From: Verrucomicrobiota bacterium
GTDB taxonomy: Bacteria > Verrucomicrobiota > Kiritimatiellia > UBA8416 > JABMPJ01
Length of the DNA stretch: 64,000 bases
Assembly (NCBI GenBank): GCA_018648805.1
Contig: JABGQM010000024.1
Location: 1,065-65,064 of the forward strand
Direction: 5' to 3'
A model generated the notes under the pieces. The model was not told where the DNA came from. It searched no databases and worked only from the letters and a program-made list of their open reading frames with translations. Both the position numbers and the translations under genes were made by a program. Shown here one piece after another: positions 38,641 to 55,857 of this stretch (position 1 is the first letter of the stretch; every line of letters begins with the position of its first letter).

Positions 38641-39765
38641 ATGAAATCGAGCGAGGCGATAGCAACACCAGCCGCTAGGTCTGACGTTCCGTGGTGGTGG
38701 GTAGACATCGGTGATGATGAGGCCCGCGCTATCGTTGCCGCTATCCGGGATCACCGCATTCAATGCGGCCCGATCTGTCGCGAGCTGGAATCGCGCCTGG
38801 CCGAGGAGCTCCAGGTGGCCCACGTGGTCATGATGTCCTCCGGCAGTGCCGCGCTGGCGGCCGCGCTGATGGCGTGCGGGATCGGACCCGGCGACGAGGT
38901 CATCATTCCCGCCGCGTCGTACATTGCCACCGCGCATGCCTGCCTGCTGATCGGCGCCAAGGTCGTCCTGGTCGATATCGGCCCCGACCGACCGGTCATC
39001 GATCCGGCCGGCATCGAGGCGGCTGTCACGGACAAGACCCGCGCGATCATGCCCGTGCACCTGAATGGCGCTGCCTGTGATATGGGCGCTATCGGGGCTA
39101 TCGCCAAACGCCACGGACTGCGCGTCGTCGAGGATGCCGCCCAGGCGTTCTGCTCCCGCACATCAGACCGTTTTCTCGGAACACAGGGCGACGTCGGTGC
39201 ATTCTCGATGTCGATCGCCAAGCTGGTCACCACCGGCGAAGGCGGGTTTGCCGTCACGAACGATGATGATCTGGCCGACCGGCTGCACAAGGCGCGCAAC
39301 CAGGGCGTGCAGGCGGTGGCGAACAACCTTTTCGATGCTCTGGGCTTCAATTTCCGCCTGACAGACATGCTCGCGGCCATGGGCGTAGCCCAGCTCGGCA
39401 AACTGGAAGAGAAGGTCGATACGACGCGACGGGTGTACGCATTCTACAAGGAGGCGCTGGCCGACCTGCCGACCATCGATCTCCTGCCGTGCCGGATTGA
39501 CGAAGGGGAACTGCCGCTGTGGCCCGTGGCGCTCTGCCGCGATCGCGAGCGCGTCGTGGAGCTGCTGGCGGCCCGCGGCATTCAGACCCGCCCGGTCAAC
39601 CCGTGCCTGGCCGAGTCTCCCCAGGTGCACTGCGCGGGTCGCTTCGAGAATGCGCAGCGGTTCGCGGCCGCCGGCCTGCGCCTGCCCGGCGGACCCGACC
39701 AGCCGCGTGAAAACCTCGAACGGACCGCAGAGGCACTGCACGACATTGGAAACAGTGAACCGTGA
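38641..39765 (+). CDS. DegT/DnrJ/EryC1/StrS-family PLP-dependent sugar aminotransferase
   Basis: GDEVIIPAASYIATAHA, MPVHLNGAACDM, SMSIAKLVTTGEGG (active-site Lys). Confidence 0.85.
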   Translation: MKSSEAIATPAARSDVPWWWVDIGDDEARAIVAAIRDHRIQCGPICRELESRLAEELQVAHVVMMSSGSAALAAALMACGIGPGDEVIIPAASYIATAHACLLIGAKVVLVDIGPDRPVIDPAGIEAAVTDKTRAIMPVHLNGAACDMGAIGAIAKRHGLRVVEDAAQAFCSRTSDRFLGTQGDVGAFSMSIAKLVTTGEGGFAVTNDDDLADRLHKARNQGVQAVANNLFDALGFNFRLTDMLAAMGVAQLGKLEEKVDTTRRVYAFYKEALADLPTIDLLPCRIDEGELPLWPVALCRDRERVVELLAARGIQTRPVNPCLAESPQVHCAGRFENAQRFAAAGLRLPGGPDQPRENLERTAEALHDIGNSEP

Positions 39766-40493
39766 CTGACACCCACCCTATACAAGCCAACACACTATCG
39801 GTCGCTGTCCCGGCGCGGGACGAGGAAGCCAACCTTGAAGAGGCCGTGGCCGTGATGATTCCGGTCATCGAGCGCCATTTCAGCGACTACGAGATCTTCA
39901 TCTACGATGACGGCAGCTCGGACCGCACCGGTGAGATTGCCGAGCAGCTGGCCGCACAATACGAGCATGTCAGCGCGTTCCACAACCGGCCCTCAATCGG
40001 ACTGGGCGGTGTCGTTCGCGAAGGGCTTAAGCGGGCCGGCATGGAGTATTTCATGTATATTGACGGCAAAGCGGCCACAACAGCCGCGGCCCTCGATCTG
40101 ATCTTCGCGGCACGCACGGAGGCCGATCTCGTCGTGCCGTATATGGCCAACCGTGGGGAACGCTCCCTGGGACGGCGTGTGGTCTCCCGGCTGTTCGTGG
40201 CGATCCTCAACACCACGTTCAGACTCGACCTGCAGTACTACAACCACCTCCTGCTGTGCCGCACGGAAGTCGCCCGGCGCGCGAACGTGCGGACCGCGTC
40301 CTACGCCTTCCAGGCGGAACGCACCATCAAGCTGATCAAGTCGGGTTGCAGCTACGTGCAGGTTGGTGTCGAGGATCGCTACGACCTTCCCGGGCGGCGA
40401 ACCAAGGCCTTCCATCTGCGCAACGTGCTGGGCGTGGCCGCTTTCTATATTCACGTCCTGCGGGATGTGCGTGCCATGCGAGGGCGTCAATGA
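39762..40493 (+). CDS. GT2 glycosyltransferase, DPM1-like (polyprenol-phosphate sugar synthase type), paralog A
   Basis: LSVAVPARDEEANLE, IFIYDDGSSDRTGEIA, DLVVPY; GTG start overlaps degT stop. Confidence 0.8.
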   Translation: MTDTHPIQANTLSVAVPARDEEANLEEAVAVMIPVIERHFSDYEIFIYDDGSSDRTGEIAEQLAAQYEHVSAFHNRPSIGLGGVVREGLKRAGMEYFMYIDGKAATTAAALDLIFAARTEADLVVPYMANRGERSLGRRVVSRLFVAILNTTFRLDLQYYNHLLLCRTEVARRANVRTASYAFQAERTIKLIKSGCSYVQVGVEDRYDLPGRRTKAFHLRNVLGVAAFYIHVLRDVRAMRGRQ

Positions 40494-41875
40494 AACGGGT
40501 CCTGCTCCTTAATCCCCCCGCCGATCCGCCTGTTTCGCGTGACTACTATTGCGGGCACTTCACCAAGGGGCGCTACTACTGGCCCCAGATTGACCTGCTG
40601 GTGATGAGCGGCATGCTGGCCGGGCACTACGAGGTGCAGGTGCTTGACGCCGTGGTCGAGGACCTTACCCCGGACGAGACCCACGCCCGGATCGCGGCGC
40701 TCAGCCCCGATGCCGTGGTAGCCGTAACGGCCTCGGTCTCGTGGTCGGGCGACATGGCATTCCTCTCCCGACTCAAAGAAACACACCCGTTGCCGATTCT
40801 CGTCAGCGGCGATTACCCCAGGGCAGAGCCGCAAGCCGTGCTGGCGCACCACCCGGCTATCGACGCGGTTGTCCTTGATTTCACGGAGAACGACGCCGTC
40901 GCATTCATCGGCGGGAAACGCGGGCCGGGGCTGCGCAATCTCTACACGCGCACGGATTCCGGTGAACCCCAGATTGAAGGCTCCAGCGTCTTCTGCTATC
41001 CGACACCGCGCCATGAGCTCTTTCCCCTCAAGCGTTACTACATGCCACAGAGCCTGCACCATCCGGCCGTCCCGATTCTGACGGACTTCGGATGCCCTTT
41101 CGCCTGCGACTTCTGTTTCATGGAGCGCGTCCAATACAGGCTGCGCGATATGGCCGATGTGACCGCCGAGCTGGCGGCACTACGCAAGCTGGGTGTCAGG
41201 GAACTGTTCCTGGCCGACCAGAGTTTCGGCTCGCATGCGACCCACGCCCGCGAGGTCTGTCAGACCATCCGCGATGTGGGACGGGGACGTTTCACGTGGG
41301 CGGCCTCCATGCGGGTCGATGCCGCTACCCCGGAACTCTTGCAGGTCATGCGGGATGCCGGCTGCCACACGCTGATGTTTGGTGTAGAGACGCCTTCGCA
41401 GGAAGTTCTGGATGCCCATCACAAGCGTACAACGGTAGACCAAATACAGGTCGCCTTTGCCCTCGCAAGGAAAATGGGATTCCGCAGGTTGGCCCATTTC
41501 ATTATCGGGCTGACCGGTGAAGATGAAGCGTCGTTGGAGCGTCTGGTCGAGTTTGCGATTGCGCTGGATCCCGATATTGCCTCTTTCAATGTCGCCGCCC
41601 CGGCATGGAATACCTCTTTTGGCGACCACATCCGGGACGAAAGCTGGCAGCTCGGTGAAGGCGTGGAGATCGCCGGACCCGACGCGGCACCGGTATGGGA
41701 ACAGCCCGGGTTGCCCATCCAGACGATTCTGCGGCTGCGGGACCAGGCCGTCCGCCGTTTCTACATGCGGCCCGGCTACATCCTGAAACAGCTCACGCGC
41801 GTCCGCTCAACTTACCAGTTGCGTACCCTCTTCCGTGAAGGCATCGGTATGCTTAGAGATCGCATGGGGAGCTAG
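40490..41875 (+). CDS. B12-binding radical SAM enzyme (probable C- or N-methyltransferase type)
   Basis: N-terminal B12-binding-like region then DFGCPFACDFC; ATGA overlap with upstream GT2. Confidence 0.8.
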   Translation: MKRVLLLNPPADPPVSRDYYCGHFTKGRYYWPQIDLLVMSGMLAGHYEVQVLDAVVEDLTPDETHARIAALSPDAVVAVTASVSWSGDMAFLSRLKETHPLPILVSGDYPRAEPQAVLAHHPAIDAVVLDFTENDAVAFIGGKRGPGLRNLYTRTDSGEPQIEGSSVFCYPTPRHELFPLKRYYMPQSLHHPAVPILTDFGCPFACDFCFMERVQYRLRDMADVTAELAALRKLGVRELFLADQSFGSHATHAREVCQTIRDVGRGRFTWAASMRVDAATPELLQVMRDAGCHTLMFGVETPSQEVLDAHHKRTTVDQIQVAFALARKMGFRRLAHFIIGLTGEDEASLERLVEFAIALDPDIASFNVAAPAWNTSFGDHIRDESWQLGEGVEIAGPDAAPVWEQPGLPIQTILRLRDQAVRRFYMRPGYILKQLTRVRSTYQLRTLFREGIGMLRDRMGS

Positions 41876-42122
41876 CGGGTAGTGCTCAGGCTTATGACAA
41901 TGGGAAATCGGTTGACGATGTCGGCGACGAGAGCGGATAACGAGGGGAGAGCAACCAATCAGCCTGCCCTCCATAGCGCGAAGCGCGACGGAGGGTCCAC
42001 CGCTATCGTCGCCGCTATCGTCCACCGGAATGGCAGGAAAATGAGGAGCAGACAGAGATGCTGCTGATTTCGTATGCTGTCAGTTGTGACAGCACGAGTC
42101 AGCCGAAGAGGAATACACAATT

Positions 42123-43154
42123 ATGACCATTGCCATCAATAGCCACGCCGAATGGCACCCGCTGAAGGACGTCGTCGTGGGAATCGCCACCGGCGCGCGC
42201 AACCCCACTGTCAAGGACGAGTCGCTGCACAGTATCTGCTACGGCGATCTTTCCGACGAGGCCTTTGCCGCCGCCAGCTCGGGGCCCTTTCCTGATCGCA
42301 TTATCAAGGAGACCAACGAGGATCTCGATGGCTTTGCCGACAAACTGCGCAACCTGGGCATCACGGTCCATCGCCCGCGTGAGGTGGACTTCGGTCAACT
42401 GTATAGTACCGATGACTGGACCGTTGACGGGTATTACGGTTACTGTCCGCGCGATACGGTGCTGACGGTCGCCAATGAGGCGATCGCCGCCCCCATGGTC
42501 CTGCGCCATCGCCAGAACGAAGCCGACCGGATTTTTGATGGGCTGTTCGACATGACATCGGCCCCCGTACCGCGCCTGCTCGACAGCATGTACGACCGCA
42601 GCCACCTGGGGAAGCCGACCCTGATGAACCATGAGCCCGCTTTTGACGCGGCGAACTGCCTGAAAATCGGTGAGGACATTCTCTACCTGGTCTCCAACAC
42701 CGGCAACCATGCCGGTGCCGACTGGCTCCAGGATCACCTCGGTAGCGGCTATCGCGTTCATCGCGTCGAGGATGTCTATGTCTTCATTCACATTGACTCC
42801 ACGTTCACGGTGCTGCGGCCCGGCCTGGTGCTGCTCTGCCCCGACCGCGTCAACGAAAAGAACCTGCCCGACCTGTTCCGCGGGTGGGACAAGATCTATG
42901 CGCCCGAGCCGGATCCGATCTCGTGCCTGGAAGGGTGGGGCGGCGCGTCGAAATGGATCGCGATGAACCTGCTCAGTCTGGGCCCCGACCTCGTGGCCGT
43001 TGAAGAGAACCAGGTCGCCTTGATGCGCGTCCTCGCCGGCTACGGCATCGACTCTCTGCCCATCCGCCTTCGGCACACGCGCACGCTCGGCGGCGGCCCA
43101 CACTGCACCACCCTTGACCTCGTGCGGGAAGGAGAACTGGAGGACTACCGGTGA
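42123..43154 (+). CDS. Amidinotransferase (glycine/inosamine-phosphate amidinotransferase superfamily, StrB1-like)
   Basis: Overall architecture plus C-terminal catalytic Cys motif RTLGGGPHCTTLDL (GGGxHCxT). Confidence 0.75.
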   Translation: MTIAINSHAEWHPLKDVVVGIATGARNPTVKDESLHSICYGDLSDEAFAAASSGPFPDRIIKETNEDLDGFADKLRNLGITVHRPREVDFGQLYSTDDWTVDGYYGYCPRDTVLTVANEAIAAPMVLRHRQNEADRIFDGLFDMTSAPVPRLLDSMYDRSHLGKPTLMNHEPAFDAANCLKIGEDILYLVSNTGNHAGADWLQDHLGSGYRVHRVEDVYVFIHIDSTFTVLRPGLVLLCPDRVNEKNLPDLFRGWDKIYAPEPDPISCLEGWGGASKWIAMNLLSLGPDLVAVEENQVALMRVLAGYGIDSLPIRLRHTRTLGGGPHCTTLDLVREGELEDYR

Positions 43155-44251
43155 CGAATACAGCCATCAGCTCCGATACCGGACCGGCCACCCCGCGCGC
43201 TATTTTCAACCAGGATCGCGTCTGTGTCGTCGATGCGGCGCTGATTGAGAAGCTGAAGACGGAGGCACTGCGCTCCCCGCTGGGGCGCTATCGGCTCTGC
43301 ATGCATCACTCCACCGGCGACCCCGCCCAGGACATGGTCGTCGCGCATCGGTGCGGCACCTACACGCAGCCGCACTGCCACCCTGCTGCGGCCACGTCGT
43401 TCGCGATGATCGAAGGGCGATTGGATGTCCTGATCTTCGACGACACCGGTGCCTTGACGCGGCGAGTTCGCATGGGACGTTTGGGTGACCGCTACGCCGA
43501 CACCGTCAGCCTGCATCTCTCCACCGGTGTAATACACATGGAAGACTGCCTGACCGAGACCGCCGTGTTCCACGAAACCCTGTCGGCGCCCAACCAGGAT
43601 GGCGGGGCGACGCGCTACGCCGCGTGGAGCCCCCCCGAGGACGACCCCGATCGCGCGGCGGCATTTCGCCGCCGGCTGGGACAGGAACGTCAGTCAAACG
43701 AGAGCGATGAAACGCTTCGACCGCGTGTCGCTGCCGACCAGCCTTCGGGGCCCGGTGCCTTTTTTAACCGGGATCGCGTCTGTGCGGTCGATGCGACGTT
43801 GATTGAAAGGCTGAAGACGGAGGCGTTGCGCTCCCCGCTCGGCCGCTTCCGGCTGTGCATGCATCACTCCACGAGTGACCCGATGCAGGACATGATTATC
43901 GTGCATCGGCGCGGCAACTACTCCCGGCCGCACTACCACCCGAACGCGGCCATGTCCTATACGATGATCGAAGGACGCATGGATATACTGCTTTTTGACG
44001 ATGCCGGCTCCGTGACGGAGCGCGTTCGCATGGGGTGTCACGGAGACCCCGAATCCGATGCCGTTGGCATCCGCCTCGCTGCCGGGACCGTCTACACGCC
44101 GGTTTGCCTCACGGAGGCCGCCGTCTTCCACGAAACTCTATCTGCGCCGAACCCGGATGGCGAAGCGACGCACTACGCCGCGTGGAGTCCCGCTGACGAT
44201 GAACCGGACCGCATCGCGGCATTTCACCGCGGGCTGGGCATTGGAGTGTAA
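43151..44251 (+). CDS. Tandem double WbuC-family cupin protein
   Basis: Two ~170-aa halves each with LRSPLGR(Y/F)RLCMHHST(G/S)DP(A/M)QDM..H..G.Y..PH.HP; DNA 43190-43690 and 43750-44240 ~85% identical. Confidence 0.7.
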   Translation: MTNTAISSDTGPATPRAIFNQDRVCVVDAALIEKLKTEALRSPLGRYRLCMHHSTGDPAQDMVVAHRCGTYTQPHCHPAAATSFAMIEGRLDVLIFDDTGALTRRVRMGRLGDRYADTVSLHLSTGVIHMEDCLTETAVFHETLSAPNQDGGATRYAAWSPPEDDPDRAAAFRRRLGQERQSNESDETLRPRVAADQPSGPGAFFNRDRVCAVDATLIERLKTEALRSPLGRFRLCMHHSTSDPMQDMIIVHRRGNYSRPHYHPNAAMSYTMIEGRMDILLFDDAGSVTERVRMGCHGDPESDAVGIRLAAGTVYTPVCLTEAAVFHETLSAPNPDGEATHYAAWSPADDEPDRIAAFHRGLGIGV

Positions 44252-44260
44252 ATCGACCGT

Positions 44261-44401: not shown

Positions 44402-45166
44402 CTAGGGCAAAAGATTCGGGTCGGACCGATCTCTCACGGCTTTCCGTCCTCGAACGCGCAGATCCCAGAGCAGCCGGAACAGGCATGCGATCACGGCGAC
44501 ACTGTTCCGCCACCGATAAGATCGCGTGCGCCCACCATCTTCGAACGCATCCGTTACCCCTACCTCGCAATAGCTGCAGCCGCCACGAATCAGCTTGCAC
44601 AAGGCCTCGGCTTGAAAGGCATAGCTGCAGGTCCGAATCTCTATGCCGTTGAGATCCTCCCGCCTGTACAGGGGCAAGTGCATGTAGTACTTCAACTTCA
44701 GGCCGGCCACGAGCCCTATGGCGCTTGTCAGGCCATGCGAAATGAGTCGCCGTAGCACAGGCCGCTCGTGGCTATTCAGAGTATAGGGCACGATGATGTC
44801 GGCGCTTCCGGCCCGTTCCCATATCCGGCTCATCTCCTCGGCCGTGTTGCCGCCCTTGCCGTGGTAAAGCGTAACAAAGTCCATCCCGGCGCGGGTCAGC
44901 CCGCTCTTGAACGCGCCGCCAAGGTTGTGTGGCCGGTCGTGATGGATGACACTGATCCGCCCGTCCGCGGCGGCCAGCTCGTCCGCGATGCGGCCCGTGC
45001 CGTCCGTGCTGCCGTCATCGACGATAATGATCTCGTAGTCCCGGAAATGGCGTGGCGCGGCATCTGCCACGACACCGACCGAACGCCTGAGAAAACGCTC
45101 CTCGTTCAATGCCGGGATGATCACCGATACCGTTTTGCGGTGCGATGCACCGTCGTCCTGTTGCAT
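44402..45166 (-). CDS. GT2 glycosyltransferase, DPM1-like, paralog B
   Basis: VSVIIPALNEERFL, IIIVDDGSTDGTGRIA, DIIVPY. Confidence 0.8.
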   Translation of the reverse strand: MQQDDGASHRKTVSVIIPALNEERFLRRSVGVVADAAPRHFRDYEIIIVDDGSTDGTGRIADELAAADGRISVIHHDRPHNLGGAFKSGLTRAGMDFVTLYHGKGGNTAEEMSRIWERAGSADIIVPYTLNSHERPVLRRLISHGLTSAIGLVAGLKLKYYMHLPLYRREDLNGIEIRTCSYAFQAEALCKLIRGGCSYCEVGVTDAFEDGGRTRSYRWRNSVAVIACLFRLLWDLRVRGRKAVRDRSDPNLLP

Positions 45167-45172
45167 GGCTGC

Positions 45173-46102
45173 TCAGCTTTGCTTTGTTCCGGTTCCGTCG
45201 GTGGCGTGCTTGTTTTCGTTCCAGGTCATGCACCCGTCGCACAGCTCGATAGTGTGACGCTGATGGTTCAGGTGCAGCTCGCGTATGCGGGTCATCTCGG
45301 GTCCCTGCCATATCTCGGCCAGAGAGTGCGTGCGCGTGTCGCCCACCACGATGTCGCCATTCGTGTCGTTGCAGCACATGTGTACCTTGCCATCCGCGTA
45401 GATGTCCATCGATCCCCACAAGGTGATGCACGGAATGGCGTTGGCGGCCGCGCTCCTGGGCTCCAGGTCCCGGATGCGCCCCCAGCCGAACACACGTTGA
45501 ATCACGACTTGATCGTGCGACATCAGATGTTCGGTCCAGTGCCGCATAAAGTCCTCTTGCTCGCCCGCGTTCAGGTCCTGGGCCACCATCTGGATCCGTA
45601 TCTGTGTTTCCGGTCGCAGCGCGTCCCGCGCCCAAATGAAGTTCCGTAGGTTGCGATAGACGTCGTCAAAATTCAACCCGATGCGAATCGCTTCAAACGT
45701 AGCCTTGTCGAGCGAGTCCAGTGAGATGCCGACATAGTCGATCCCGGCACGAAGCAGCCCCTCGGCTCTCGCTTCGGTCAGCAAGCTGGCGTTTGTGGTG
45801 ACATGCACGCGCCGGATGCCGGCCTGCTTGAGGCGCGCGACCTTATCCTCGAGCCCGGAATCCGCCAGGGCCTCACCGTTCCCCCCCAGCGACACCCACC
45901 GGACGTGTTCGGCGTTCTCCGCAAGCTCGCCAAGCAGCTTGTCGAAGATCTCCGGCGGCAGCTTCTGACGGCTTCGCCTGTCCGGGTCGACGCCGCACAT
46001 GACACAGCGGGCATTGCAGAAATCGATCACCTCAATGCTGACATATTTCGGATAGCGCACCAGCTCGTGCAAGGGCAAGCCTTGCCGCCGTTCAACATGC
46101 AC
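45173..46102 (-). CDS. Radical SAM enzyme (SPASM/twitch-like C-terminus)
   Basis: CNARCVMC, SLGGNGEAL; C-terminal CCNDTNG...CDGC. Confidence 0.8.
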   Translation of the reverse strand: MHVERRQGLPLHELVRYPKYVSIEVIDFCNARCVMCGVDPDRRSRQKLPPEIFDKLLGELAENAEHVRWVSLGGNGEALADSGLEDKVARLKQAGIRRVHVTTNASLLTEARAEGLLRAGIDYVGISLDSLDKATFEAIRIGLNFDDVYRNLRNFIWARDALRPETQIRIQMVAQDLNAGEQEDFMRHWTEHLMSHDQVVIQRVFGWGRIRDLEPRSAAANAIPCITLWGSMDIYADGKVHMCCNDTNGDIVVGDTRTHSLAEIWQGPEMTRIRELHLNHQRHTIELCDGCMTWNENKHATDGTGTKQS

Positions 46103-46500
46103 CCGTGCCTCTTCTTCGCTGTCGATCGTACACCCCTTTTCCCGCTAGCGGCTCGTACTCTGCCTGGCGCCTATTGTTAAGTCTCTTGTCTTATTCTAAA
46201 GGCTCTGGCAAATTGAGTGCATAACACAGATGCATTTCCCGCGCAATAGAATCGTAGCTGCAGAGACTCACCGTGTTGTAGGGCCCCAATCGGATGTTAC
46301 TCTCTTGCCGTGTGCATTGCCTCCAGCGGCCACGCAGACCAGATTGGCTCGCCTGCGCTGGGTCGGCCCGAACGCGTTGCGCAGCAACGTGTCTGGGGAC
46401 TCCGTGGAAACCGTCTCGGGTGACCACCGCCCTACGTGTCATCATTTGCAGTGAGCCTGAACCCCATGTGTTCCTTGCGGCACGAGCGCTTGCATCCTTT

Positions 46501-47538: not shown

Positions 47539-48118
47539 CCAATGCTCCCACAACCGTCCTCATGTTGTTTCGAAATTGAGGAGATGTCTCTCTGTTCAGC
47601 AGCCACTCAACAGCAGCGCGCACTTCCTCCTCAGATGGCTTGATACGGTACACCAAATCCTCCAAGTGTCTCGCACGGGCCTTGGGGTCCATCGCTGCCA
47701 GCAGTTTGAAATGCACCTGGTCCAAGCGGCTGATGAAGAACGCTTTCAGCGACGGTCCATAGTCGCGCACCTCCCACCGTTTCATCATCCCTTCCGGTGC
47801 ACCGTAGACAGCCAGCACGTCCTTCGGCCCCATGTTCAGCCAGTCCTCCTCCAACTGCAGATCCTGTGCAACCCAGGCAACTACTTCCCGGAAGTCGTCC
47901 GGCAACGTCTTGTCAGGCCGAAGCACAACTCCAGACTCCGTTTCCTCCACAATCGCCAGCACATCAACGTCTTTGGTTGTCCGGTGGGCCACATTCAGAA
48001 CATTCAATGCACTGCCGCCGCAGATTACCAAGGCGATCGGATCCGTGTATTCATACACCAAACGCGACCCAAGCCGCTGCAAAGCACCGTCAATTTGATC
48101 TGGACTGTCAAAACTCAT
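47504..48118 (-). CDS. Minimal nucleotidyltransferase-fold protein (possible AbiEii/MNT-like toxin)
   Basis: ICGGSALNV...TKDVDVL = hG[GS]...DhD pol-beta NTase signature. Confidence 0.45.
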   Translation of the reverse strand: MSFDSPDQIDGALQRLGSRLVYEYTDPIALVICGGSALNVLNVAHRTTKDVDVLAIVEETESGVVLRPDKTLPDDFREVVAWVAQDLQLEEDWLNMGPKDVLAVYGAPEGMMKRWEVRDYGPSLKAFFISRLDQVHFKLLAAMDPKARARHLEDLVYRIKPSEEEVRAAVEWLLNRETSPQFRNNMRTVVGALDYDNISNDIPE

Positions 48119-48356
48119 GACTGCACTGTAGCATACAATGCGGCTGCTACAATGCAAAAAAACTGTACGACGCTGGAGGCACTAGTTTAGCGGTCTCAAC
48201 CGACTTTCAAGCGCTTCGGGCGCACCGCCCGTCTTTCGCGGACCCCTACAAGGCGGGGAACTTACTGGGGCTGGAGTAATGGGAAGGATTTGACGTAAGG
48301 TCTGTAATATCGTACGTTATGGTGTTTACTGGTCAGTTTCATAGGATTTATGAATC

Positions 48357-48812: not shown

Positions 48813-51170
48813 ATGAACGACAGGATAGACAAACAAGAGCCCCACACACCCACACACTCACACGCTCATGCTCTGCTCCCCCGTCTCCTCCCCTTCCTCC
48901 TCATCATCCTGGCCGGCGTGCTGGCCTACTGGAACAGCTTCGACGGTGTGTTCGTCTATGACGACCTGGACTCCATTCGCGATAACCTGCACATCCGCAA
49001 GCTCTGGCCGCTCAAGGAGTCCCTCTCGCTGCCGCTGCTGAGCAGTGCAACCACCGTGGACGGGCGGCCGTTGCTGAGTCTCTCACTGGCGTTGAACCAC
49101 TCGCTTTTCGGTCCGGAGCCGTGGGGCTACCACCTGGTCAACCTGCTAATCCACCTCGCGGCCGGACTGCTCCTGTTTGGCGTCGTCAGGCGTACGCTGC
49201 ACCTGCCGCAGTTTCGTGAGCGCTACGCGCGAAGTGCTTGCCCTTCGGAGCCTTGGCGCAGTAGGGGACGCTGGCTCGCCCTGGCCACCGCCCTGATCTG
49301 GCTGGTCCATCCCCTGCAGACCGAGAGCGTCACCTATATCGTGCAACGCGCCGAATCACTGATGGGCATGCTGTTTCTGCTGACGATGTATTGTGCGATT
49401 CGCGGGTTTACGAGTGGGGAGAGTCGGGAGGAAGACGGGTCGCACGGTGCCCAGGAACATGCAAAGGTCCCGGCCGAGAGGAACTACAGCGAGAACTTTG
49501 TCGTGAACCATTCCGATTCTAACTATTCCGTGAACTTTGCCGAGAACTACTTCGGACTAGTTTACGGCAAAGTTTACGGGATAGTCCGGCGATGTAGTTT
49601 ACGACAAAGTTCACGATGTAGCTGCAGGTCAGGCACAAAGAACCCATCCCTTTGGTACGTGGCGGCGATCATCGCCTGCGCCATCGGGATGGGGGTCAAG
49701 CAAACCATGTTCAGCGTGCCGCTACTGGTCTTGCTCTACGACGCCCTGTTCATCTCCGACTCGTTTCGTGCCGCGCTGACGAAGCGGTGGCGGCTCTACG
49801 CGGCCCTCTGTTCGACCTGGCTGATCATTTTCGGGATCATGGCGCTCTCATGGCAGGAATCGACGATCGACTTCGTCAAGATCAGTCCGCTGCGCTACGC
49901 CCTCACTCAGCCGCTTGTGATTCTGTACTACCTGCGCTTGGTGTTCTGGCCCTCGCCGCTGGTGCTGGAGTACGGCTGGGCATTGGAGGATCAATGGCAT
50001 CGCATCGTGTTCCCGGCTCTCGCCATCCTGGGCATGCTTGCCGCAATGTTCCGCGGCATAGTCCGCCGCAAGTGGTACGGGTTCGTGGCCGCGTGGTTCT
50101 TCCTGATCCTGGCCCCGACGTCAAGCATTGCGCCCACACGGCAGGCCATCTTCGAACACCGCATGTACCTGTCGCTGGCAGCGGTTGTCATGCTCGTGGT
50201 CGTTGGTGGTGAGGCCGCGCTGCGCAAGCTGGTCACGGAGCGGAAACGACGTGTCGTGCTCGGTGGCTGCATGGTGACGGCAATCATGATTGTACTCGGA
50301 TGCCTGACACACAACCGCAACACGGATTATCATAGTGAGATCGGGATTTGGCAGGATGATGTCGCCCATCGCCCCGGGAACGCGCTCGCGCATCTCAACC
50401 TGGGCAATGCCGTGCAGGGGGTGGGACGTCCGCGGGATGCGGTCGCACATTACCGCGAAGCGCTGCGATTGAAACCGGACTACGCGGAGGCTCACTACAA
50501 TTGGGGGGTTGCACTGGAGGCGGCGGGTCAGACGCAGGAGGCGATGGTCCACTATCAACAGGCCCTGCAGCTCAAGCCGGACTATGCCGAAGCCCACAAC
50601 AACATGGCCCACGCGCTGGAGGCCTCGGGACGCCCCCGGGAAGCTGTTGAGCACTGCCGCAAGGCCCTGCAAATCAGGCCTGGACTGCCGGACGTCCACT
50701 TCAACCTGGGCAACGCCCTGCAGGCGCTGGGCCGTTCCGGGGAAGCTATTCAGCACTACCGTGAGGCGCTACGGCTGAGACCCGACTACGCCGAAGCCCA
50801 TCTTGGCTGGGGCAACGTGCTGTTGGTGTCGGGCCGGCTGGAGGAAGCGGTCGGGCAGTACCGGGAAGCGCTGCGACTGAAACCGGACTACGCGGAGGCC
50901 CACTATCACTGGGGGATGGCACTGGACGCGGCACGGCGGCCGCAGGAATCGATGACGCACTATCAACAGGCCGTGCGGATCAAGCCGACTATGGCGGCCG
51001 CGCACCTTAACCTGGGCAATGCCGTGCTGGCGCTGGGCCGCCCCCGCGAAGCAATTCCACATTACCGGCAGGCCCTGCGGATCAGGCCGGACTACGTCCA
51101 CGCCCGCGACAACCTGCGTCAAGTCCAGGCGATGCTGCGGGAGGGCAGGGGGACGAACATCGAACACTGA
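48813..51170 (+). CDS. TMTC/PMT-like GT-C + TPR protein (paralog 8, plus strand) with in-frame insertion of GTGAAC-type repeat
   Basis: Same conserved core as array paralogs; ~70-aa low-complexity insertion (NYSENFVVNHSDSNYSVNFAENYFGLVYGKVYG...) encoded by repeat 49480..49626; no REP insertion. Confidence 0.7.
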   Translation: MNDRIDKQEPHTPTHSHAHALLPRLLPFLLIILAGVLAYWNSFDGVFVYDDLDSIRDNLHIRKLWPLKESLSLPLLSSATTVDGRPLLSLSLALNHSLFGPEPWGYHLVNLLIHLAAGLLLFGVVRRTLHLPQFRERYARSACPSEPWRSRGRWLALATALIWLVHPLQTESVTYIVQRAESLMGMLFLLTMYCAIRGFTSGESREEDGSHGAQEHAKVPAERNYSENFVVNHSDSNYSVNFAENYFGLVYGKVYGIVRRCSLRQSSRCSCRSGTKNPSLWYVAAIIACAIGMGVKQTMFSVPLLVLLYDALFISDSFRAALTKRWRLYAALCSTWLIIFGIMALSWQESTIDFVKISPLRYALTQPLVILYYLRLVFWPSPLVLEYGWALEDQWHRIVFPALAILGMLAAMFRGIVRRKWYGFVAAWFFLILAPTSSIAPTRQAIFEHRMYLSLAAVVMLVVVGGEAALRKLVTERKRRVVLGGCMVTAIMIVLGCLTHNRNTDYHSEIGIWQDDVAHRPGNALAHLNLGNAVQGVGRPRDAVAHYREALRLKPDYAEAHYNWGVALEAAGQTQEAMVHYQQALQLKPDYAEAHNNMAHALEASGRPREAVEHCRKALQIRPGLPDVHFNLGNALQALGRSGEAIQHYREALRLRPDYAEAHLGWGNVLLVSGRLEEAVGQYREALRLKPDYAEAHYHWGMALDAARRPQESMTHYQQAVRIKPTMAAAHLNLGNAVLALGRPREAIPHYRQALRIRPDYVHARDNLRQVQAMLREGRGTNIEH
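49480..49626. repeat. GTGAAC-type palindromic element (family B) inside CDS 48813..51170, in frame
   Basis: gagaactttgtcgtgaacca...ccgtgaactttgccgagaactac...gtagtttacgacaaagttcacgatgtag; arms are reverse complements. Confidence 0.75.
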
Positions 51171-51254: not shown

Positions 51255-51455
51255 ACGTAGTTCACGACAAAGTCCACGGGCTGGTTTTTCGAGGTAGTTC
51301 ACGACAATGTTCACGATGTAGTGTTCAGCTCCATCGCATGGGGCGCGAAGCCACTGTTGTCCATAGTCCTGTTAGAGCACTCACCTCGTGAACTTTGTCG
51401 TGAACTACCCCGCAATAACTACAGCGTTGAACTTTGTCGTCAACTATTTCGATCC
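51255..51455. repeat. Family B palindromic element, intergenic
   Basis: gtagttcacgacaaagtccacggg/gtagttcacgacaatgttcacgatgtag ... cgtgaactttgtcgtgaactacc/gttgaactttgtcgtcaactatttc. Confidence 0.75.
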
Positions 51456-51617
51456 ACCAGGCACTCCGCCCACCTCAGATGTTCGAATTATCCACACAGC
51501 TGCCATGCGCCCAACATCGAACATCCCCGTTTTCCTCCGTGACTTCGCGTTCCCGGGGCGAGTACTCTCGGGAGCACTGGAAAACGAGAATCGAGAGAGT
51601 ACGGTAACCTGACTATC

Positions 51618-52634
51618 ATGACGTCCGATGTAGCACCACAGACGGCCATCGATCTGCTCCGGCGTATGGAGCGTATACGCCTCCTCGAGGAGGCGATTGC
51701 GGAGCGCTATCCCGAGGAGAAGATGCGCTGTCCCACGCATCTCTCGACCGGGCAGGAGACGGTGCCATCGGCCATTGGCGTTGCCCTCCGCCGGGACGAC
51801 CAGGTTTTCAGCACCCACCGCTCGCATGCACACTACGTCGGGAAAGGCGGCGACCTGGGCGCGTTGGTCGCCGAGCTGTACGGCAAGGCCGGCGGCTGCT
51901 GCGGCGGGCGCGGCGGGTCGATGCACCTGTCGGACCGGTCGGTCGGCTTCGTGGCCAGCACGGCCATCGTGGCCAACTCGATCCCGCTGGCCGTAGGCGC
52001 GGCCCTGGCGAATCGCCTGCTTGGCAACGGGCGGGTCGGCTGCGCACTCTTCGGCGATGCGGCGGTTGAGGAAGGCGTTTTCAGCGAATCGGTCAACTTC
52101 GCGGCCCTGCGCGCGCTGCCCGTCCTCTTCGTCTGCGAGAACAACCAGTATTCCGTCTTCACGCATCTGCGTGACCGGCAGCCCGCGGGGCGCCGCATTC
52201 ACGAGATGGTGGCGGCGATGGGGGTGCGGACGGTGGTGGGCGACGGGAACGATGCCCTCGCGGTGCTGGCGGCCGTGGAGGATGCCGCGGCCCATGCCCG
52301 CAACAGGAAGGGCCCCGTTTTCCTCGAGTTTGCGACGTATCGCTGGCGGGAGCATTGCGGGCCGTTCTACGACAACGACCTGGGCTACCGGACGGCCGGG
52401 GAGTTCGAGGCGTGGCGCGCGCGTGATCCGGTGGCCCGGCTGGAGGGCGAGCTGGTGTCGCGCGGCGACCTGGACGCGGCCGGGCTGCGCTCGCTGCAGG
52501 AATCGGTGCGCGCGGAAGTCGCCGCCGCGTTCGACGTTGCGGAGGCCTCGCCGTTCCCGCCGGCGGCGGACGCCTACCGGGAACTGTTCGTGGCGCAAGA
52601 CGGCATGCCGTCGCAAGGGAGCCACACGGAGTAG
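51618..52634 (+). CDS. TPP-dependent dehydrogenase E1 component alpha subunit
   Basis: GQE, HRSHAHY, GGCCGGRGGSMH, CENNQY motifs. Confidence 0.85.
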   Translation: MTSDVAPQTAIDLLRRMERIRLLEEAIAERYPEEKMRCPTHLSTGQETVPSAIGVALRRDDQVFSTHRSHAHYVGKGGDLGALVAELYGKAGGCCGGRGGSMHLSDRSVGFVASTAIVANSIPLAVGAALANRLLGNGRVGCALFGDAAVEEGVFSESVNFAALRALPVLFVCENNQYSVFTHLRDRQPAGRRIHEMVAAMGVRTVVGDGNDALAVLAAVEDAAAHARNRKGPVFLEFATYRWREHCGPFYDNDLGYRTAGEFEAWRARDPVARLEGELVSRGDLDAAGLRSLQESVRAEVAAAFDVAEASPFPPAADAYRELFVAQDGMPSQGSHTE

Positions 52635-52635
52635 T

Positions 52636-53697
52636 ATGACTGCGCGATCCATCACATATGCCGCCGCGATCCATGAGGCCATCCAGACGGCGATGACGCT
52701 CGATGAGCGGGTGATCTGCTACGGGCTCGGCGTTCCGGATCCCAAGGGCGTCTTCGGAACGACACTCGGCCTCCAGGAGCAGTTCGGGGCCGAGCGCGTG
52801 TTCGATATGCCTACCTCCGAGAACGCGATGACCGGGGTGGCGGTCGGCGCGGCGTTGGCCGGGTTGCGTCCCGTGGTCACACACCAGCGTGTCGATTTTT
52901 TCCTCCTGGCCATGGACCAGTTGGTCAACAGCGCGGCGAAATGGCGCTACATCTTCCGCGGGGAGATGGCCGTGCCGCTGACGATCCGACTCGTGATCGG
53001 GCGCGGGTGGGGCCAGGGCCCGACCCACTCACAGAGCCTGCAGGCCTGGTTTGCGCATGTGCCGGGGCTGAAGGTGGTCATGCCGTCCCTTGCGGCTGAC
53101 GCGAAGGGCCTGCTGCTCGCCAGCATCGCCGACAACAACCCCGTCGTGTTTCTCGAACACCGCTGGCTGCACAACCAGGCGGGGGCTGTTCCCGAGGGGG
53201 ACTACCGCGTGCCACTTGGCAAGGCCGCCGTGCTGCGCGAGGGGGCGGATGTCACGCTGGTCGGGATGTCCTTTATGACGATGGAGGCGCTGCGGGCGGC
53301 GGAGCACCTGGCCGGCCGCGGTGTGACGTGTGACGTGGTGGACCTGCGCACGATCGCCCCTCTGGACTGGGACACCGTGCTGGGCTCGGTTTCGAAAACG
53401 GGCCGTCTGCTCGCACTCGACACGAGCTGGATCACCGGTTCGGTTGCCGGCGAGATCGTGGCCCGTGCCGCCACCGAGTGCTGGGAGGCTCTCAAGTGCG
53501 CGCCGCAGCGGCTGGGCCTGCCGGACTTCCCTGTCCCCGCCGGCTACTCTCTCACGCGCGGGTTCTATCCCACCGCCTGCGACGTGGTGCGCAAGGTTGA
53601 GCAGATGCTGGGGCGCGAGCTGGGGGCGGAGGCACTTGCGATTCCGGCCGACGAGCACCATGACGTCCCCGGGGAGTGGTTCAAGGGGCCTTTTTGA
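52636..53697 (+). CDS. TPP-dependent dehydrogenase E1 component beta subunit
   Basis: FDMPTSENAMTGVAVGAALAG, transketolase-like C-terminal domain; ATG 2 nt after alpha stop. Confidence 0.85.
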   Translation: MTARSITYAAAIHEAIQTAMTLDERVICYGLGVPDPKGVFGTTLGLQEQFGAERVFDMPTSENAMTGVAVGAALAGLRPVVTHQRVDFFLLAMDQLVNSAAKWRYIFRGEMAVPLTIRLVIGRGWGQGPTHSQSLQAWFAHVPGLKVVMPSLAADAKGLLLASIADNNPVVFLEHRWLHNQAGAVPEGDYRVPLGKAAVLREGADVTLVGMSFMTMEALRAAEHLAGRGVTCDVVDLRTIAPLDWDTVLGSVSKTGRLLALDTSWITGSVAGEIVARAATECWEALKCAPQRLGLPDFPVPAGYSLTRGFYPTACDVVRKVEQMLGRELGAEALAIPADEHHDVPGEWFKGPF

Positions 53698-53814: not shown

Positions 53815-53965
53815 ATCTGAATATCCAATATCCAACACTCAAATCCAATGTCCAAGGATGGGCGCCCCGCAGGGGCGCAATTGCCTTGGACATTGGATAT
53901 TCCTTGTTGGCTGTTGGACATTGAACCGGGCTGGGGCTTTGAAACTGGGGAATGTCCAAATTCAA
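53815..53965. repeat. CCAATATCCAACAAGG-type MITE-like inverted-repeat element (family C)
   Basis: atccaatatccaacactcaaatccaatgtccaagg...ccttggacattggatattccttgttggctgttggacattg with central gggcgccccgcaggggcgc hairpin. Confidence 0.7.
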
Positions 53966-54048
53966 CGTCGTGCTTGACTCGCCCCCTCACCTTCTGGCTA
54001 CCCTTATTCAGTTGGCCGCACCGTTCCGCAGCTGCCTGAGGATCGTCC

Positions 54049-55140
54049 ATGAGTAACGAACACCTGCATGCAAAGCACGAGGCCATGACCAACGTGATCT
54101 ATGCCACCCCGGGCATGCTCCCCAACCGGTACGTGTTTGTGGTCACCAACCTGTGCAATCTGAAATGCCGTTTCTGTTTCCAGGCCCGTGACAAGAGGGC
54201 AGACGCCATGCGCTTGGAGGACTGGCTCAACGTGGCCCGTCAGCTGCCTTCCTACGCCCGCGTGACCCTCACGGGGGGCGAACCACTCATGTTCCCCGGC
54301 TTCAAGGAGCTCTTCGTCCATGTCGCCGAACGGTTTGACTGCAACATGATCACCAACGGCCTGCTGCTTGACGAGCAGACCATTGACCTCCTGCTCGAAC
54401 ACCCGAAGTTTCGCGTCCTGTCGATCTCGATGGACGGTCTGAACAACAAGAGCAGGGGCGTGAGCGAAGGACAGTGGCAGCGTGTGGAAGCCATGCTGCG
54501 GTACTTCGTAGAGCGTAAGGCTGCAACCGGGAGCAACTGCGTTCTGGACATCAAGGCTCTGATCCTGGACGAAAACGCGGAGTCCCTGTTCGAGCTGTAC
54601 CGGCACTGCGTCGAGGAGATAGGGTGCAATTCCTTTGCATTCCAGCTGCTGAAGGGCTCATCGATGCAGCACGCCGACGTGATGTACCCCTTCGACGATA
54701 TCTTCAAGGAATCTCCCGCGCCGGTCTATAAGAACTTCCCGGAGATCCTGAGGCAGCTCAAAAGGGTCCGCGAGTATAGCCTGAAGACAGGAACCAAGGC
54801 GTTCCTGCATCCCAAAGTCGCGTCCCTGATGTCGGATGCCGACATCGGGGATATTGACTACATCAACCGACGCACCTTTCCGCAAGAGCGCTTCCTGCCC
54901 TGTCGGGCGCCGTGGTCCAGTATCCATATCAATGTCGACGGAGACGTCTTCCCGTGTCTGGCCGTGCCGATGGGAAACGTCAAGACCATGCCGCTTGAGA
55001 AAATCATCCATGGAGAGGCGTTCTCGAGGTTCAAAGAAACCATCCGTGAGCGCGGGGAAGTGGCGGCATGCAACCGTTGCGGCTGGCTCAAGCCGGCACC
55101 GCCCGACGCTACCGTGCTCCCAAGATCGGATGTCGTCTAG
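54049..55140 (+). CDS. Radical SAM / SPASM-type enzyme
   Basis: CNLKCRFC, LTGGEPLM; C-terminal CRAPW...CLAVPMG...CNRCGW. Confidence 0.85.
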   Translation: MSNEHLHAKHEAMTNVIYATPGMLPNRYVFVVTNLCNLKCRFCFQARDKRADAMRLEDWLNVARQLPSYARVTLTGGEPLMFPGFKELFVHVAERFDCNMITNGLLLDEQTIDLLLEHPKFRVLSISMDGLNNKSRGVSEGQWQRVEAMLRYFVERKAATGSNCVLDIKALILDENAESLFELYRHCVEEIGCNSFAFQLLKGSSMQHADVMYPFDDIFKESPAPVYKNFPEILRQLKRVREYSLKTGTKAFLHPKVASLMSDADIGDIDYINRRTFPQERFLPCRAPWSSIHINVDGDVFPCLAVPMGNVKTMPLEKIIHGEAFSRFKETIRERGEVAACNRCGWLKPAPPDATVLPRSDVV

Positions 55141-55857
55141 ATGCCGGCCCCCACTATCTCCATAGTCATACCGGCGTTCAATGAAGAACAACACCTTGAG
55201 CAGACGGTCCTTGGTGTCATAGGCCTCCTCGACAGTAGCGTCGGGCGTGACTCCGAAATACTCATCTTCGATGATGGCAGCACGGACGGGACGGGCGTGA
55301 TCGCCGAGGAGCTGTCGCAACGATATCCGTTCATAAGGTCCTTCCATTTCAAGCAGAACCAGGGACTGGGTCACGTGGCACGCCGTGCGATAAAGGAGGC
55401 GGGCAAGGACTACATCATGTGGCATACGGGAGACGGCTCCGTTGACAGCCGGTCACTGGTCCCCGCCATGCGCTCGATTGGCAAGGCCGACATCATCGTC
55501 GCCTACCTGGAGAATCAGAACGACCGCATATGGATCAGGAGCGCCCTCTCCCGATCATTCGTGGCGCTCTATAACGTGCTGTTTCATTTGAAGCTCAGGT
55601 ACTACAGCGGACCGTCCATCTTCCCCTGTGAGGTCCTGAGGAGCCTGTCCATCAAGTCCGGCCGGTATGAGTTCTGGGCGGAGATCATGGTCCGATGCCT
55701 GAAGCTGGGACTGACGCATATCGAAATGCCTTTTGTCCACAACCCGCCCGCTGACAATTCCCTGGCAACCGTCAGACCGAAGAACGTGGGCAATGCGCTG
55801 AGGATCGCGCTCATCCTGATGAACGACCTGTACCTCAGGAAGAATGTACGGGGCTAG
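55141..55857 (+). CDS. GT2 glycosyltransferase, DPM1-like, paralog C
   Basis: ISIVIPAFNEEQHLE, ILIFDDGSTDGTGVIA, DIIVAY; ATG immediately after radical-SAM stop. Confidence 0.8.
   Translation: MPAPTISIVIPAFNEEQHLEQTVLGVIGLLDSSVGRDSEILIFDDGSTDGTGVIAEELSQRYPFIRSFHFKQNQGLGHVARRAIKEAGKDYIMWHTGDGSVDSRSLVPAMRSIGKADIIVAYLENQNDRIWIRSALSRSFVALYNVLFHLKLRYYSGPSIFPCEVLRSLSIKSGRYEFWAEIMVRCLKLGLTHIEMPFVHNPPADNSLATVRPKNVGNALRIALILMNDLYLRKNVRG

Follow-up and report, generated by a model that had tools for sequence, protein, structure and literature searches.

Three GT2 glycosyltransferases without membrane anchors, probable producers of polyprenyl-phosphate-linked sugars in a verrucomicrobial locus

The three genes and their subfamily

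This study concerns three genes for family 2 glycosyltransferases (GT2s), here called G1, G2 and G3, that lie in a stretch of 64,000 nucleotides (the window) from a Verrucomicrobiota bacterium of the class Kiritimatiellia (assembly GCA_018648805.1, contig JABGQM010000024.1, positions 1,065 to 65,064 of the forward strand). An earlier note, made from the sequence alone, had described them as paralogs resembling the dolichyl-phosphate-mannose synthase DPM1, each placed among its own tailoring genes, and had proposed that several differently modified polyprenol-phosphate sugars are produced. The genes are the following.

39762-40493, plus strand: G1, GT2 of 243 aa with a GTG start and no transmembrane (TM) helix; the DXD position reads DGKAA ("DGK" type)
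44402-45166, minus strand: G2, GT2 of 254 aa, no TM helix; DXD position HGKGG
55141-55857, plus strand: G3, GT2 of 238 aa, no TM helix, the most divergent of the three; DXD position TGDGS

That three GT2 paralogs occupy these positions was borne out by the open reading frames (ORFs), by Pfam and by the subfamily profile alike. All three proteins match PF00535 (Glycos_transf_2) with E values of 1e-14 to 1e-21; their codon-position GC is gene-like, as in the surrounding genes, with a third-position value (GC3) of 0.74-0.77; and the profile, when compared with the six-frame translation of the window, found G1, G2 and G3 only, with scores of 263-331. G1 and G2 share 41-42% identity, and G3 shares 30-33% with either. 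The description of the proteins as being of about 240 aa without a C-terminal TM helix was also correct, since they measure 238-254 aa and their maximal Kyte-Doolittle means over 19 residues are 1.10-1.16, compared with 2.62 for E. coli ArnC and 2.33 for GtrB.

The likeness to DPM1 needs to be restated. Of the motifs that had been offered as a DPM1 signature, DDGS.D.TG is present in all three proteins, but DI[IV]V.Y is found only in G2 and G3 (G1 has DLVVPY), and [IV]xIxPAxNEE as written fits none of them (G1 reads PARDEE). Moreover, PAxNEE and DDGSxD are nucleotide-binding motifs of GT2s in general. G1, G2 and G3 are not members of the DPM1/GtrB/ArnC family itself: the defining DADLQ is absent, and for none of the three is any curated NCBIfam cut-off approached, the scores being 22-41 bits against 529 for ArnC, 21.6 against 370 for PpgS and 20-30 against 325 for AglJ. 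With such scores, the three proteins are not orthologues of ArnC, GtrB/PgfS, PpgS, AglJ, PgaC or any other characterised enzyme. They belong instead to a large uncharacterised GT2 (GT-A fold) subfamily, for which a library search returned 2,815 clusters at 50% identity with E below 1e-30.

Many orthologues of G1, at 48-89% identity, occur in metagenome bins, those of Kiritimatiellia and Proteobacteria among them, which is more than the 41% that G1 shares with G2. G2 has orthologues at about 50%, and the close relatives of G3 are confined to sister genomes, after which identity falls to about 40%. The three are old paralogs, each from a different old orthologous group. Comparison with a related genome, represented by two fragments (L096 and L097) at 79-88% identity, gave ratios of nonsynonymous to synonymous substitution rates (dN/dS) of 0.20 for G1, 0.17 for G2 and 0.32 for G3, and all three genes are therefore under purifying selection. 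Decay to pseudogenes was considered and set aside because of these ratios (0.17-0.32) and because the nucleotide-binding residues are invariant.

Fold and full-length homology

An AlphaFold2 model was built for G2 from 45 diverse homologues and is confident (pLDDT 91.5, pTM 0.89). When this model was compared with the PDB using Foldseek, ranks 1 to 15 were taken entirely by Salmonella ArnC, the Pyrococcus dolichyl-phosphate-mannose synthase (PfDPMS) and Synechocystis GtrB, with E values of 1e-15 to 2e-11 and TM-scores of 0.67-0.76. These are all polyprenyl-phosphate glycosyltransferases (Pren-P GTs). GpgS ranked next, followed by assorted GT2s, and processive synthases were absent from the top 50 matches.

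The family profile tells a similar story. Only with these three enzymes did it align almost from end to end, at profile positions 6-228 for PfDPMS, 6-217 for ArnC and 6-171 for GtrB, while chondroitin and heparosan synthases, SpsA, TarS and others aligned over about 5-115 only. The test was repeated with E. coli K-12 reference proteins taken from the annotated genome, in which ArnC covered positions 4-211 and GtrB/YfdH 5-177, and PgaC (4-111), WcaA (4-114), WcaE (6-115) and BcsA (4-105) covered only the nucleotide-binding half. With the C-terminal half of the profile alone, ArnC was the sole significant match, and a weak one (E 1e-4). Grouping was judged from nearest-neighbour identities together with profile coverage, which we hold to be more robust at such divergence.

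The earlier note had named clustering with processive GT2 polysaccharide synthases as the observation that would overturn its proposal. Fold, full-length profile coverage and the acceptor-phosphate residues described below place the three proteins with the Pren-P GTs instead. A processive synthase of the BcsA or PgaC type was rejected on three grounds: the QxxRW motif was not found in G1, G2 or G3, no TM helix is present, and the match to such enzymes is limited to the N-terminal half. As a whole, the characterised enzymes that G1, G2 and G3 most resemble are the Pren-P GTs ArnC, GtrB and DPMS.

The acceptor site and membrane association

In PfDPMS three residues of interface helix 1 bind the phosphate of dolichyl phosphate, namely Ser135, Arg117 and Arg131 (PMC5526996). 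Arg131 and Ser135 align with R139 and S143 of the subfamily (G2 numbering), which are nearly invariant; Arg117 has no aligned equivalent. An additional arginine, R135, is invariant across 45 diverse members of the subfamily, as are the nucleotide-binding residues D51, S53, D55 and T57.

Helices at about 137-154 and 219-238 of the G2 model correspond to the two interface helices, and the equivalent segments score as amphipathic in G1, G2 and G3. GtrB, ArnC and the type I and III DPMS are anchored by C-terminal TM helices. Human DPM1, a type II enzyme, is TM-less, so that the lack of a TM helix is compatible with the DPM1 class. Amphipathic helices in the absence of a TM segment fit a peripheral, monotopic association with the membrane.

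The metal site

In PfDPMS the metal is held through Asp91 and Gln93 of 89-DADLQH-94 (PMC5526996), and ArnC (DADLQN) and GtrB (DADLQD) hold it in the same way, the second Asp and the Gln being the metal ligands in all solved Pren-P GTs (PMC5526996, PMC12690121). The first Asp of DADLQ has been proposed as the catalytic base (PMC12690121). In a gap-free alignment, the residues opposite PfDPMS 89-DADLQ-93 are DGKAA in G1, HGKGG in G2 and TGDGS in G3, and a pattern search of the whole proteins found the D-x-D tripeptide nowhere in any of them. At the position of the metal-binding Asp there is thus a Lys in G1 and G2; neither has an acidic residue at the Gln position, and G3 retains the metal-site Asp only.

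Inspection of 143 further representatives of the subfamily, obtained by an unbiased library search, shows that loss of the DXD is a property of the subfamily. In these the motif position reads mostly PGD(N)(E/D), and an Asp occupies the first position in only 4. The metal-site residue is Asp in 116 and Lys in 10, proportions that put G1 and G2 in minority "GK" clades with Lys in place of the metal-binding Asp. The canonical DADLQ or DGDGQ is seen in lower-scoring, more distant relatives. A scan of genome contigs with a generic GT2 peptide pattern returned mostly canonical GT2s and serves as a contrast for the DXD only, not as a survey. We presume that metal binding persists in most of the subfamily, by way of the Asp and the Glu. 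Metal-independent GT-A enzymes are known that neutralise the diphosphate with basic residues, and the Lys types, G1 and G2, may likewise neutralise the leaving diphosphate directly, without metal.

Fusions and neighbourhoods in other phyla

Among the best subfamily representatives, all metagenomic, the GT2 is often one part of a larger protein. It is fused to the GT-C enzymes PMT_2 (P0337, P0448) and YfhO (P0364, P0455), to radical SAM/SPASM proteins (P0339, P0343), to DegT (P0332), to a methyltransferase (P0363) and to a short-chain dehydrogenase/reductase (SDR; P0392), and in one protein of 494 aa (P0328) two GT2 units follow each other in tandem. The donors of GT-C enzymes are linked to polyprenyl phosphate. 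A GT2 that is fused to such an enzyme is therefore expected to make that donor, and we regard these fusions as strong indirect evidence.

Unfused members have similar company in loci from other genomes (numbered here with the prefix L). In the Pacearchaeota locus L003, a PMT/PMT_2 GT-C gene overlaps the start of the GT2 gene, and in L006 a YfhO GT-C gene stands in the same operon-like row. In L007 the GT2 gene is followed by one for an LPG_synthase_TM protein and then by one for a multi-TM TPR protein of 760 aa with the GT-C motif VFLYDD that is also found in the window; upstream of this GT2 are heptose-nucleotide genes (HldE-like and SIS), a split transketolase and an amidinotransferase. NCBIfam assigns a "flippase-like domain" to the LPG_synthase_TM protein of the window, which also has a weak match to a glucosaminyl-phosphatidylglycerol (GlcN-PG) flippase.

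The G1 module

G1 is part of an operon on its own strand, and a second, divergent operon belongs to its module.

38539-39765, plus strand: DegT/DnrJ/EryC1-family sugar aminotransferase (Pfam PF01041, E 7e-87), first gene of the G1 operon
40490-41875, plus strand: B12-binding radical SAM enzyme, class B (Pfam B12-binding and Radical_SAM; best NCBIfam model HpnJ, far below its cut-off)
42123-43154, plus strand: StrB1-type amidinotransferase, 343 aa (assigned from PDB 1bwd; no Pfam match above threshold)
43151-44251, plus strand: tandem fusion of two DUF6016/WbuC-cupin units (Pfam DUF6016; NCBIfam cupin_WbuC over two stretches)

Divergent operon 30504-38203, minus strand, assigned from Pfam and NCBIfam:
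37322-38203, minus strand: radical SAM enzyme
36386-37315, minus strand: GT9-like protein
35325-36386, minus strand: radical SAM/SPASM enzyme
34359-35261 and 33445-34374, minus strand: split transketolase
32373-33455, minus strand: radical SAM/SPASM enzyme
31578-32366, minus strand: methyltransferase
30504-31577, minus strand: LPG_synthase_TM flippase-like protein

The genes for DegT, G1 and the B12-radical SAM enzyme are translationally coupled by overlaps of 4 nt, the DegT stop with the GTG of G1 (GTGA) and the G1 stop with the next start (ATGA). For the B12-radical SAM gene the longest ORF would begin at 40256; this start was rejected in favour of 40490 as the likely one, given that it overlaps G1 and that the domain match begins later. 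The neighbours that the earlier note had named for each paralog (DegT and a B12-radical SAM enzyme by G1, a radical SAM enzyme by G2, and E1 alpha/beta with a radical SAM enzyme by G3) are indeed those found, but for G1 they describe a small part of a much larger module that takes in the amidinotransferase and the divergent operon. The order GT2 then B12-radical SAM recurs in L008, L096 and L097, and L008 has DegT-DUF6016-GT2-B12-radical SAM, as around G1. DegT orthologues at 52-64% identity are present in the G1-type clusters L008 and L009. In L009, from a proteobacterial bin, the G1 orthologue is followed by genes for a 346-aa protein, DegT, DUF6016, radical SAM, radical SAM/SPASM, GT9-like and LPG_synthase_TM proteins, all of which share 38-61% identity with genes of the window at 30504 to 44251 (56-61% for the radical SAM, radical SAM/SPASM and GT9-like proteins and 38% for the flippase-like protein). 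The G1 module therefore takes in the minus-strand operon 30504-38203. The flippase-like protein is 51% identical to its counterpart in L008.

The amidinotransferase aligns over its full length with inosamine-phosphate amidinotransferase (PDB 1bwd, E 5e-89, about 50% identical residues) and conserves the GGGxHC active-site segment with its active-site Cys. Orthologues at 58-59% identity adjoin GT2s of the subfamily in L007 and L009, which come from two other phyla. The assignments of this protein and of DegT are strong, and the amidinotransferase suggests that a guanidino-modified sugar or cyclitol is made. The enzymes encoded in the G1 module would allow the sequence hydroxyl to carbonyl to amine to guanidino group; the parts given to the radical SAM enzymes in this scheme are weak inferences, the best solved relatives of the radical SAM/SPASM enzymes being BtrN, BlsE and DesII at weak similarity. 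DUF6016 proteins of a single unit are found in L001, L005, L006, L008 and L009, and in L096, L097, L008 and L009 the unit is of 140-190 aa, in place of the tandem form of the window. A literature search returned nothing relevant on DUF6016/WbuC in such a context, and nothing relevant on amidinotransferases with undecaprenyl phosphate or lipid-linked glycosylation.

The G2 and G3 modules

45173-46102, minus strand: radical SAM/SPASM enzyme, 309 aa (Pfam), 6 nt upstream of G2
51618-52634, plus strand: E1 alpha-like subunit of a thiamine pyrophosphate (TPP)-dependent dehydrogenase (Pfam E1_dh, E 1e-60)
52651-53697 (start approximate), plus strand: E1 beta-like subunit (Transket_pyr and Transketolase_C)
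54049-55140, plus strand: radical SAM/SPASM enzyme, 363 aa (Pfam), directly upstream of G3

The G2 pair is conserved at a distance. Orthologues of its 309-aa radical SAM/SPASM enzyme, at 37-41% identity, directly adjoin G2-like GT2s in L001 (Bacteriovoracaceae) and in L004; the best PDB matches of this enzyme are BtrN and BlsE, both weak. Between the G2 pair and the next gene, which encodes a GT-C enzyme, lies a stretch of lower GC (46191-48190) in which ORFs overlap on both strands: 46501-47553 (minus strand) has a weak match to a TrmB-like helix-turn-helix domain, and 46976-48190 (plus strand) has no matches.

The start codon of G3 directly follows the stop of the radical SAM/SPASM gene 54049-55140. 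In the related genome this pair is kept but relocated (L097, 7367-10717), where it follows genes for two small membrane proteins of 260 and 169 aa; the local GC of the pair, which in the window lies at 54049-55857, is lower (0.573). The dS is 0.25 for G3 and 0.20 for its radical SAM/SPASM enzyme, compared with 0.49-0.79 for the other genes common to the relative. Because of this relocation and of the low dS, the radical SAM/SPASM gene with G3 looks like a recently exchanged cassette. E1 alpha and beta were not found in fragments L096 and L097; the conserved unit is the radical SAM enzyme with the GT2, the E1 association being local to this genome. Consecutive genes of the Pacearchaeota locus L003 encode a radical SAM enzyme, E1 alpha, E1 beta, a PMT-type GT-C and a GT2. 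Each paralog is coupled to tailoring enzymes of its own, and the G1 and G2 sub-modules recur elsewhere; the G1 set had been understated, and the link of G3 to E1 alpha/beta is not conserved.

Two ORF choices in this region were discarded. The longest ORF for E1 beta starts at 52021, where it overlaps the upstream gene, and its domain match begins later, making about 52651 the likely start; the ORF at 51444-52682 on the minus strand was taken as a shadow of E1 alpha, given the strong Pfam match on the opposite strand. Directly downstream of G3 (56130-58141, minus strand) are genes for a nucleoside 2-deoxyribosyltransferase-like protein of 150 aa and for a GSU2086-family protein of 530 aa without a Pfam match.

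The GT-C/TPR paralogs

48813-51170, plus strand: TMTC-like GT-C enzyme with a C-terminal TPR array, 785 aa (TPR Pfam matches, weak PMT_2; DD, HPxxTE and KQT motifs; 6 TM-like segments)
1-16708, minus strand: seven further TMTC-like GT-C/TPR paralogs (Pfam), with two SGNH/GDSL-like proteins interspersed
1294-2457 and 8607-10349, within the minus-strand array at 1-16708: the SGNH/GDSL-like proteins

The eight GT-C/TPR proteins have 46-69% mutual identity and 6-7 TM-like segments. TPR arrays are present in the seven that are full length, the eighth being cut by the edge of the window. TMTC O-mannosyltransferases are characterised by a DD in the first extracytoplasmic loop, by HPxxTE and by K(E/Q)T (PMC7801869). 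The DD is invariant in an alignment of all eight window paralogs; by a strict pattern search HPxxTE (as HPLQTE) is found in all eight, and YDD/FDD and KQT in six. No match to DUF1736 was found in these paralogs, and a phmmer search of the PDB with the N-terminal domain of 48813-51170 returned nothing. On motifs only, then, these proteins are TMTC-like.

The earlier note had suggested that the number of GT2s matches the multiplicity of the GT-C paralogs. This correspondence fails, with three old GT2s set against eight GT-C/TPR genes, 46-69% identical, that are recent duplicates. It is more plausible that the GT-C multiplicity reflects different acceptors, recognised through the TPR domains, than different donors.

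A carbamoyltransferase gene (Carbam_trans_N/C) is present at 19552-21861 on the minus strand, past the start of an island of low GC (about 16900-29700; 0.57-0.61) that separates the GT-C array from the tailoring operons. The SGNH/GDSL-like proteins and the carbamoyltransferase are a hint that the transferred glycans may be decorated with O-acyl or carbamoyl groups. The island encodes an AAA_14/DUF4143 ATPase, two PIN-domain proteins, a Schlafen-AlbA_2/HATPase_c_4 protein and a DUF4062 protein, and is probably a mobile or defence island; a gene for an IS200-like Y1 transposase (29682-30404) lies just beyond it.

Proposed function and alternatives

We consider it rather probable that G1, G2 and G3 make polyprenyl-phosphate-linked sugars, on the strength of their fold, the conserved acceptor site, the gene context and the fusions. 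In this scheme the three enzymes would be peripheral proteins on the cytoplasmic side of the membrane, attached through the two amphipathic interface helices. Judging from gene content, each would bind a nucleotide-activated sugar that had been tailored by its own sub-module and pass the sugar to polyprenyl phosphate, the phosphate of which would be held by the Arg/Arg/Ser site on the first interface helix. The lipid-linked sugar would then be flipped, probably by the LPG_synthase_TM protein, as its adjacency and NCBIfam assignment suggest, and the TMTC-like GT-C/TPR enzymes may use it in the periplasm. For the sugar handled by G1, DegT would supply the amino group, the StrB1-like enzyme would probably carry out an amidination, and radical SAM enzymes would make other changes; the sugar of G2 would be modified by the conserved 309-aa radical SAM/SPASM enzyme, and that of G3 by its own radical SAM/SPASM enzyme, in this genome possibly with a two-carbon (C2) branch added in a TPP-dependent manner. 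E1-like enzymes do occur in pathways to branched sugars. The fusions of GT2s to radical SAM, DegT, methyltransferase and SDR domains would also fit tailoring of the sugar when it is already linked to the lipid. A precedent is ArnD, which acts after ArnC, on the lipid-linked sugar. The proposal that several differently modified polyprenol-phosphate sugars are produced is thus favoured by the kinship with Pren-P GTs and by the separate partners of each enzyme, but we are less confident that every enzyme has a product of its own, and nothing supports a one-to-one pairing with the GT-C enzymes.

Several observations weigh against this proposal. The residues opposite DADLQ have diverged, no D-x-D remains in the three proteins, Arg117 of PfDPMS lacks a counterpart and G3 is without the TK that the family has in the A-loop region. 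All curated NCBIfam models are remote, and a literature search found no paper on the subfamily and no biochemical data for any member; it also returned nothing relevant on a Pren-P GT with radical SAM enzymes. Neither a nucleotidyltransferase nor a 4,6-dehydratase for synthesis of the donor was found within the window. As to the putative partners, the GT-C paralogs are borderline for PMT_2 (20-31 bits against a cut-off of 26.1), and an AlphaFold2 model of 48813-51170, made from an alignment of the eight window paralogs, has a pLDDT below 50 across the membrane domain.

Some of these points would suit a different acceptor. If the three were ordinary peripheral, non-processive GT2s, they would add a sugar to a lipid-pyrophosphate-linked oligosaccharide, as do WcaA and PglI, or to a glycerolipid. 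Many GT2s of O-antigen and capsule pathways are likewise proteins of about 240-250 aa without a TM helix, the canonical DXD of Pren-P GTs is missing, and the N-terminal halves of G1, G2 and G3 have weak NCBIfam similarity to PglI, EpsE and TuaG; the LPG_synthase_TM family, moreover, also flips glycerophospholipids, a point that the weak GlcN-PG flippase match recalls. We nevertheless judge this reading unlikely, in that WcaA and WcaE match the family profile in its N-terminal half only, every one of the best structural neighbours is a Pren-P GT, the Arg and Ser of the acceptor-phosphate site are conserved and fusions to GT-C enzymes occur. In addition, the window showed no priming phosphoglycosyltransferase, Wzx or Wzy.

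Still less probable, in our estimation, is that the GT2s and radical SAM enzymes act on a soluble small molecule, such as an aminocyclitol phosphate, a compound resembling a cofactor, or a glycosylated secondary metabolite comparable to streptidine or mycofactocin. Genes for GT-C enzymes and for a flippase-like membrane protein are conserved neighbours of the GT2s, fusions to GT-C enzymes occur, the amphipathic interface helices are kept, and the window showed no precursor peptide, nonribosomal peptide or polyketide synthase, or export genes of the kind common in metabolite clusters. All of this must be set against the fact that the closest solved relative of the amidinotransferase acts on inosamine phosphate, against weak NCBIfam matches of the three proteins to MftF-type GT2s and against the position of GpgS, which glycosylates a small phospho-metabolite, as the next-best fold neighbour. 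The combination of DegT with a BtrN-like radical SAM enzyme (the BtrN match being weak) also recalls aminocyclitol pathways, the logic of which is known from butirosin biosynthesis. Finally, loss of the DXD and the frequency of fusions to tailoring enzymes might be explained if the proteins were catalytically inactive, GT2-like scaffolds that recruit radical SAM and other tailoring enzymes to the membrane. This we regard as highly improbable: D51, S53, D55, T57 and R135 are invariant across the 45 diverse members, the metal-binding Asp is kept as PGDNE in most of the subfamily (116 of 143 representatives), and all three genes are subject to purifying selection.

Returning to G1, G2 and G3 as makers of polyprenyl-phosphate-linked sugars, a bolder combination of ideas can be offered, although we advance it as speculation with the odds against it. 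It holds jointly that G1 and G2 are metal-independent Pren-P GTs with Lys in place of Asp, that the radical SAM dehydrogenase-like enzymes, DegT and the StrB1-type amidinotransferase of the G1 operon assemble, on a lipid carrier, a guanidinylated sugar or cyclitol, and that the TMTC-like GT-C/TPR enzymes attach it to envelope proteins or glycans. Were this so, it would represent a new cationic surface modification of anaerobic bacteria of the Planctomycetes-Verrucomicrobia-Chlamydiae (PVC) group and a new branch, dependent on radical SAM enzymes, in the chemistry of lipid-linked sugars, in which the sugar might be tailored while on its lipid.

Implications and comparison with known systems

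Lipid-linked monosaccharide donors are the entry to periplasmic and surface glycosylation, including that by 4-amino-4-deoxy-L-arabinose (L-Ara4N), which confers resistance. The subfamily described here is unstudied, and it lacks both the membrane anchor and the canonical metal motif that is treated as universal in mechanistic models of ArnC, GtrB and DPMS. Its recurrent coupling to radical SAM/SPASM enzymes, sometimes by fusion, implies an oxygen-independent tailoring of sugars that would feed lipid-linked donors, and at this locus a guanidino-sugar donor is possible. If the proposal is correct, it would extend what is known of lipid-linked donor chemistry and provide a natural test of Lys replacing metal in a GT-A enzyme.

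The streptidine and 2-deoxystreptamine pathways (StrB1; BtrS with BtrN) resemble the G1 module in the possession of a StrB1-type amidinotransferase, DegT and radical SAM/SPASM enzymes. The context of G1, however, is a glycosylation cluster with a GT2, a flippase-like protein and GT-C enzymes, not an antibiotic cluster, and the radical SAM similarities are weak.

The ArnB-ArnC-ArnT pathway, which adds L-Ara4N to lipid A, is alike in logic, with a DegT-family aminotransferase, a GT2 that loads undecaprenyl phosphate, further tailoring and a periplasmic transfer of a cationic sugar by a GT-C enzyme. ArnC matches the window GT2s best in structure as well as in sequence, yet identity is only about 21-22%, and it has two TM helices and DADLQN, whereas the window GT2s have neither. 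The partners also differ, since radical SAM enzymes and an amidinotransferase are among those in the window, its GT-C enzyme bears TPR repeats and the flippase candidate is LPG_synthase_TM-like rather than ArnE/F. The GtrA/GtrB/GtrC and CsbB/GtcA/YfhO systems likewise combine a GT2 Pren-P GT with a flippase and a GT-C enzyme, and members of the subfamily adjoin or are fused with YfhO and PMT_2. In contrast with these systems, the window has no GtrA-type flippase and its GT2s lack TM helices and DADLQD, while the Gtr and CsbB systems are without the extensive radical SAM tailoring seen at this locus.

The remaining comparison is with DPM1/DPMS acting together with TMTC or PMT enzymes in eukaryotes and archaea, and with Ppm1-PMT in Actinobacteria. 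The window GT2s differ from DPM1 in having neither the DAD nor an equivalent of Arg117 and in scoring far below the curated cut-offs; no DPM2/DPM3-like partner was identified, and plain GDP-mannose is unlikely as the donor, given the tailoring genes. They nonetheless align with PfDPMS over the full length, including the equivalents of Arg131 and Ser135, and their putative GT-C partners share with TMTC the DD, HPxxTE and K(E/Q)T motifs and the C-terminal TPR array. The locus may hold a bacterial counterpart of the eukaryotic route from DPM1 to TMTC, with an expanded set of TPR-bearing transferases.

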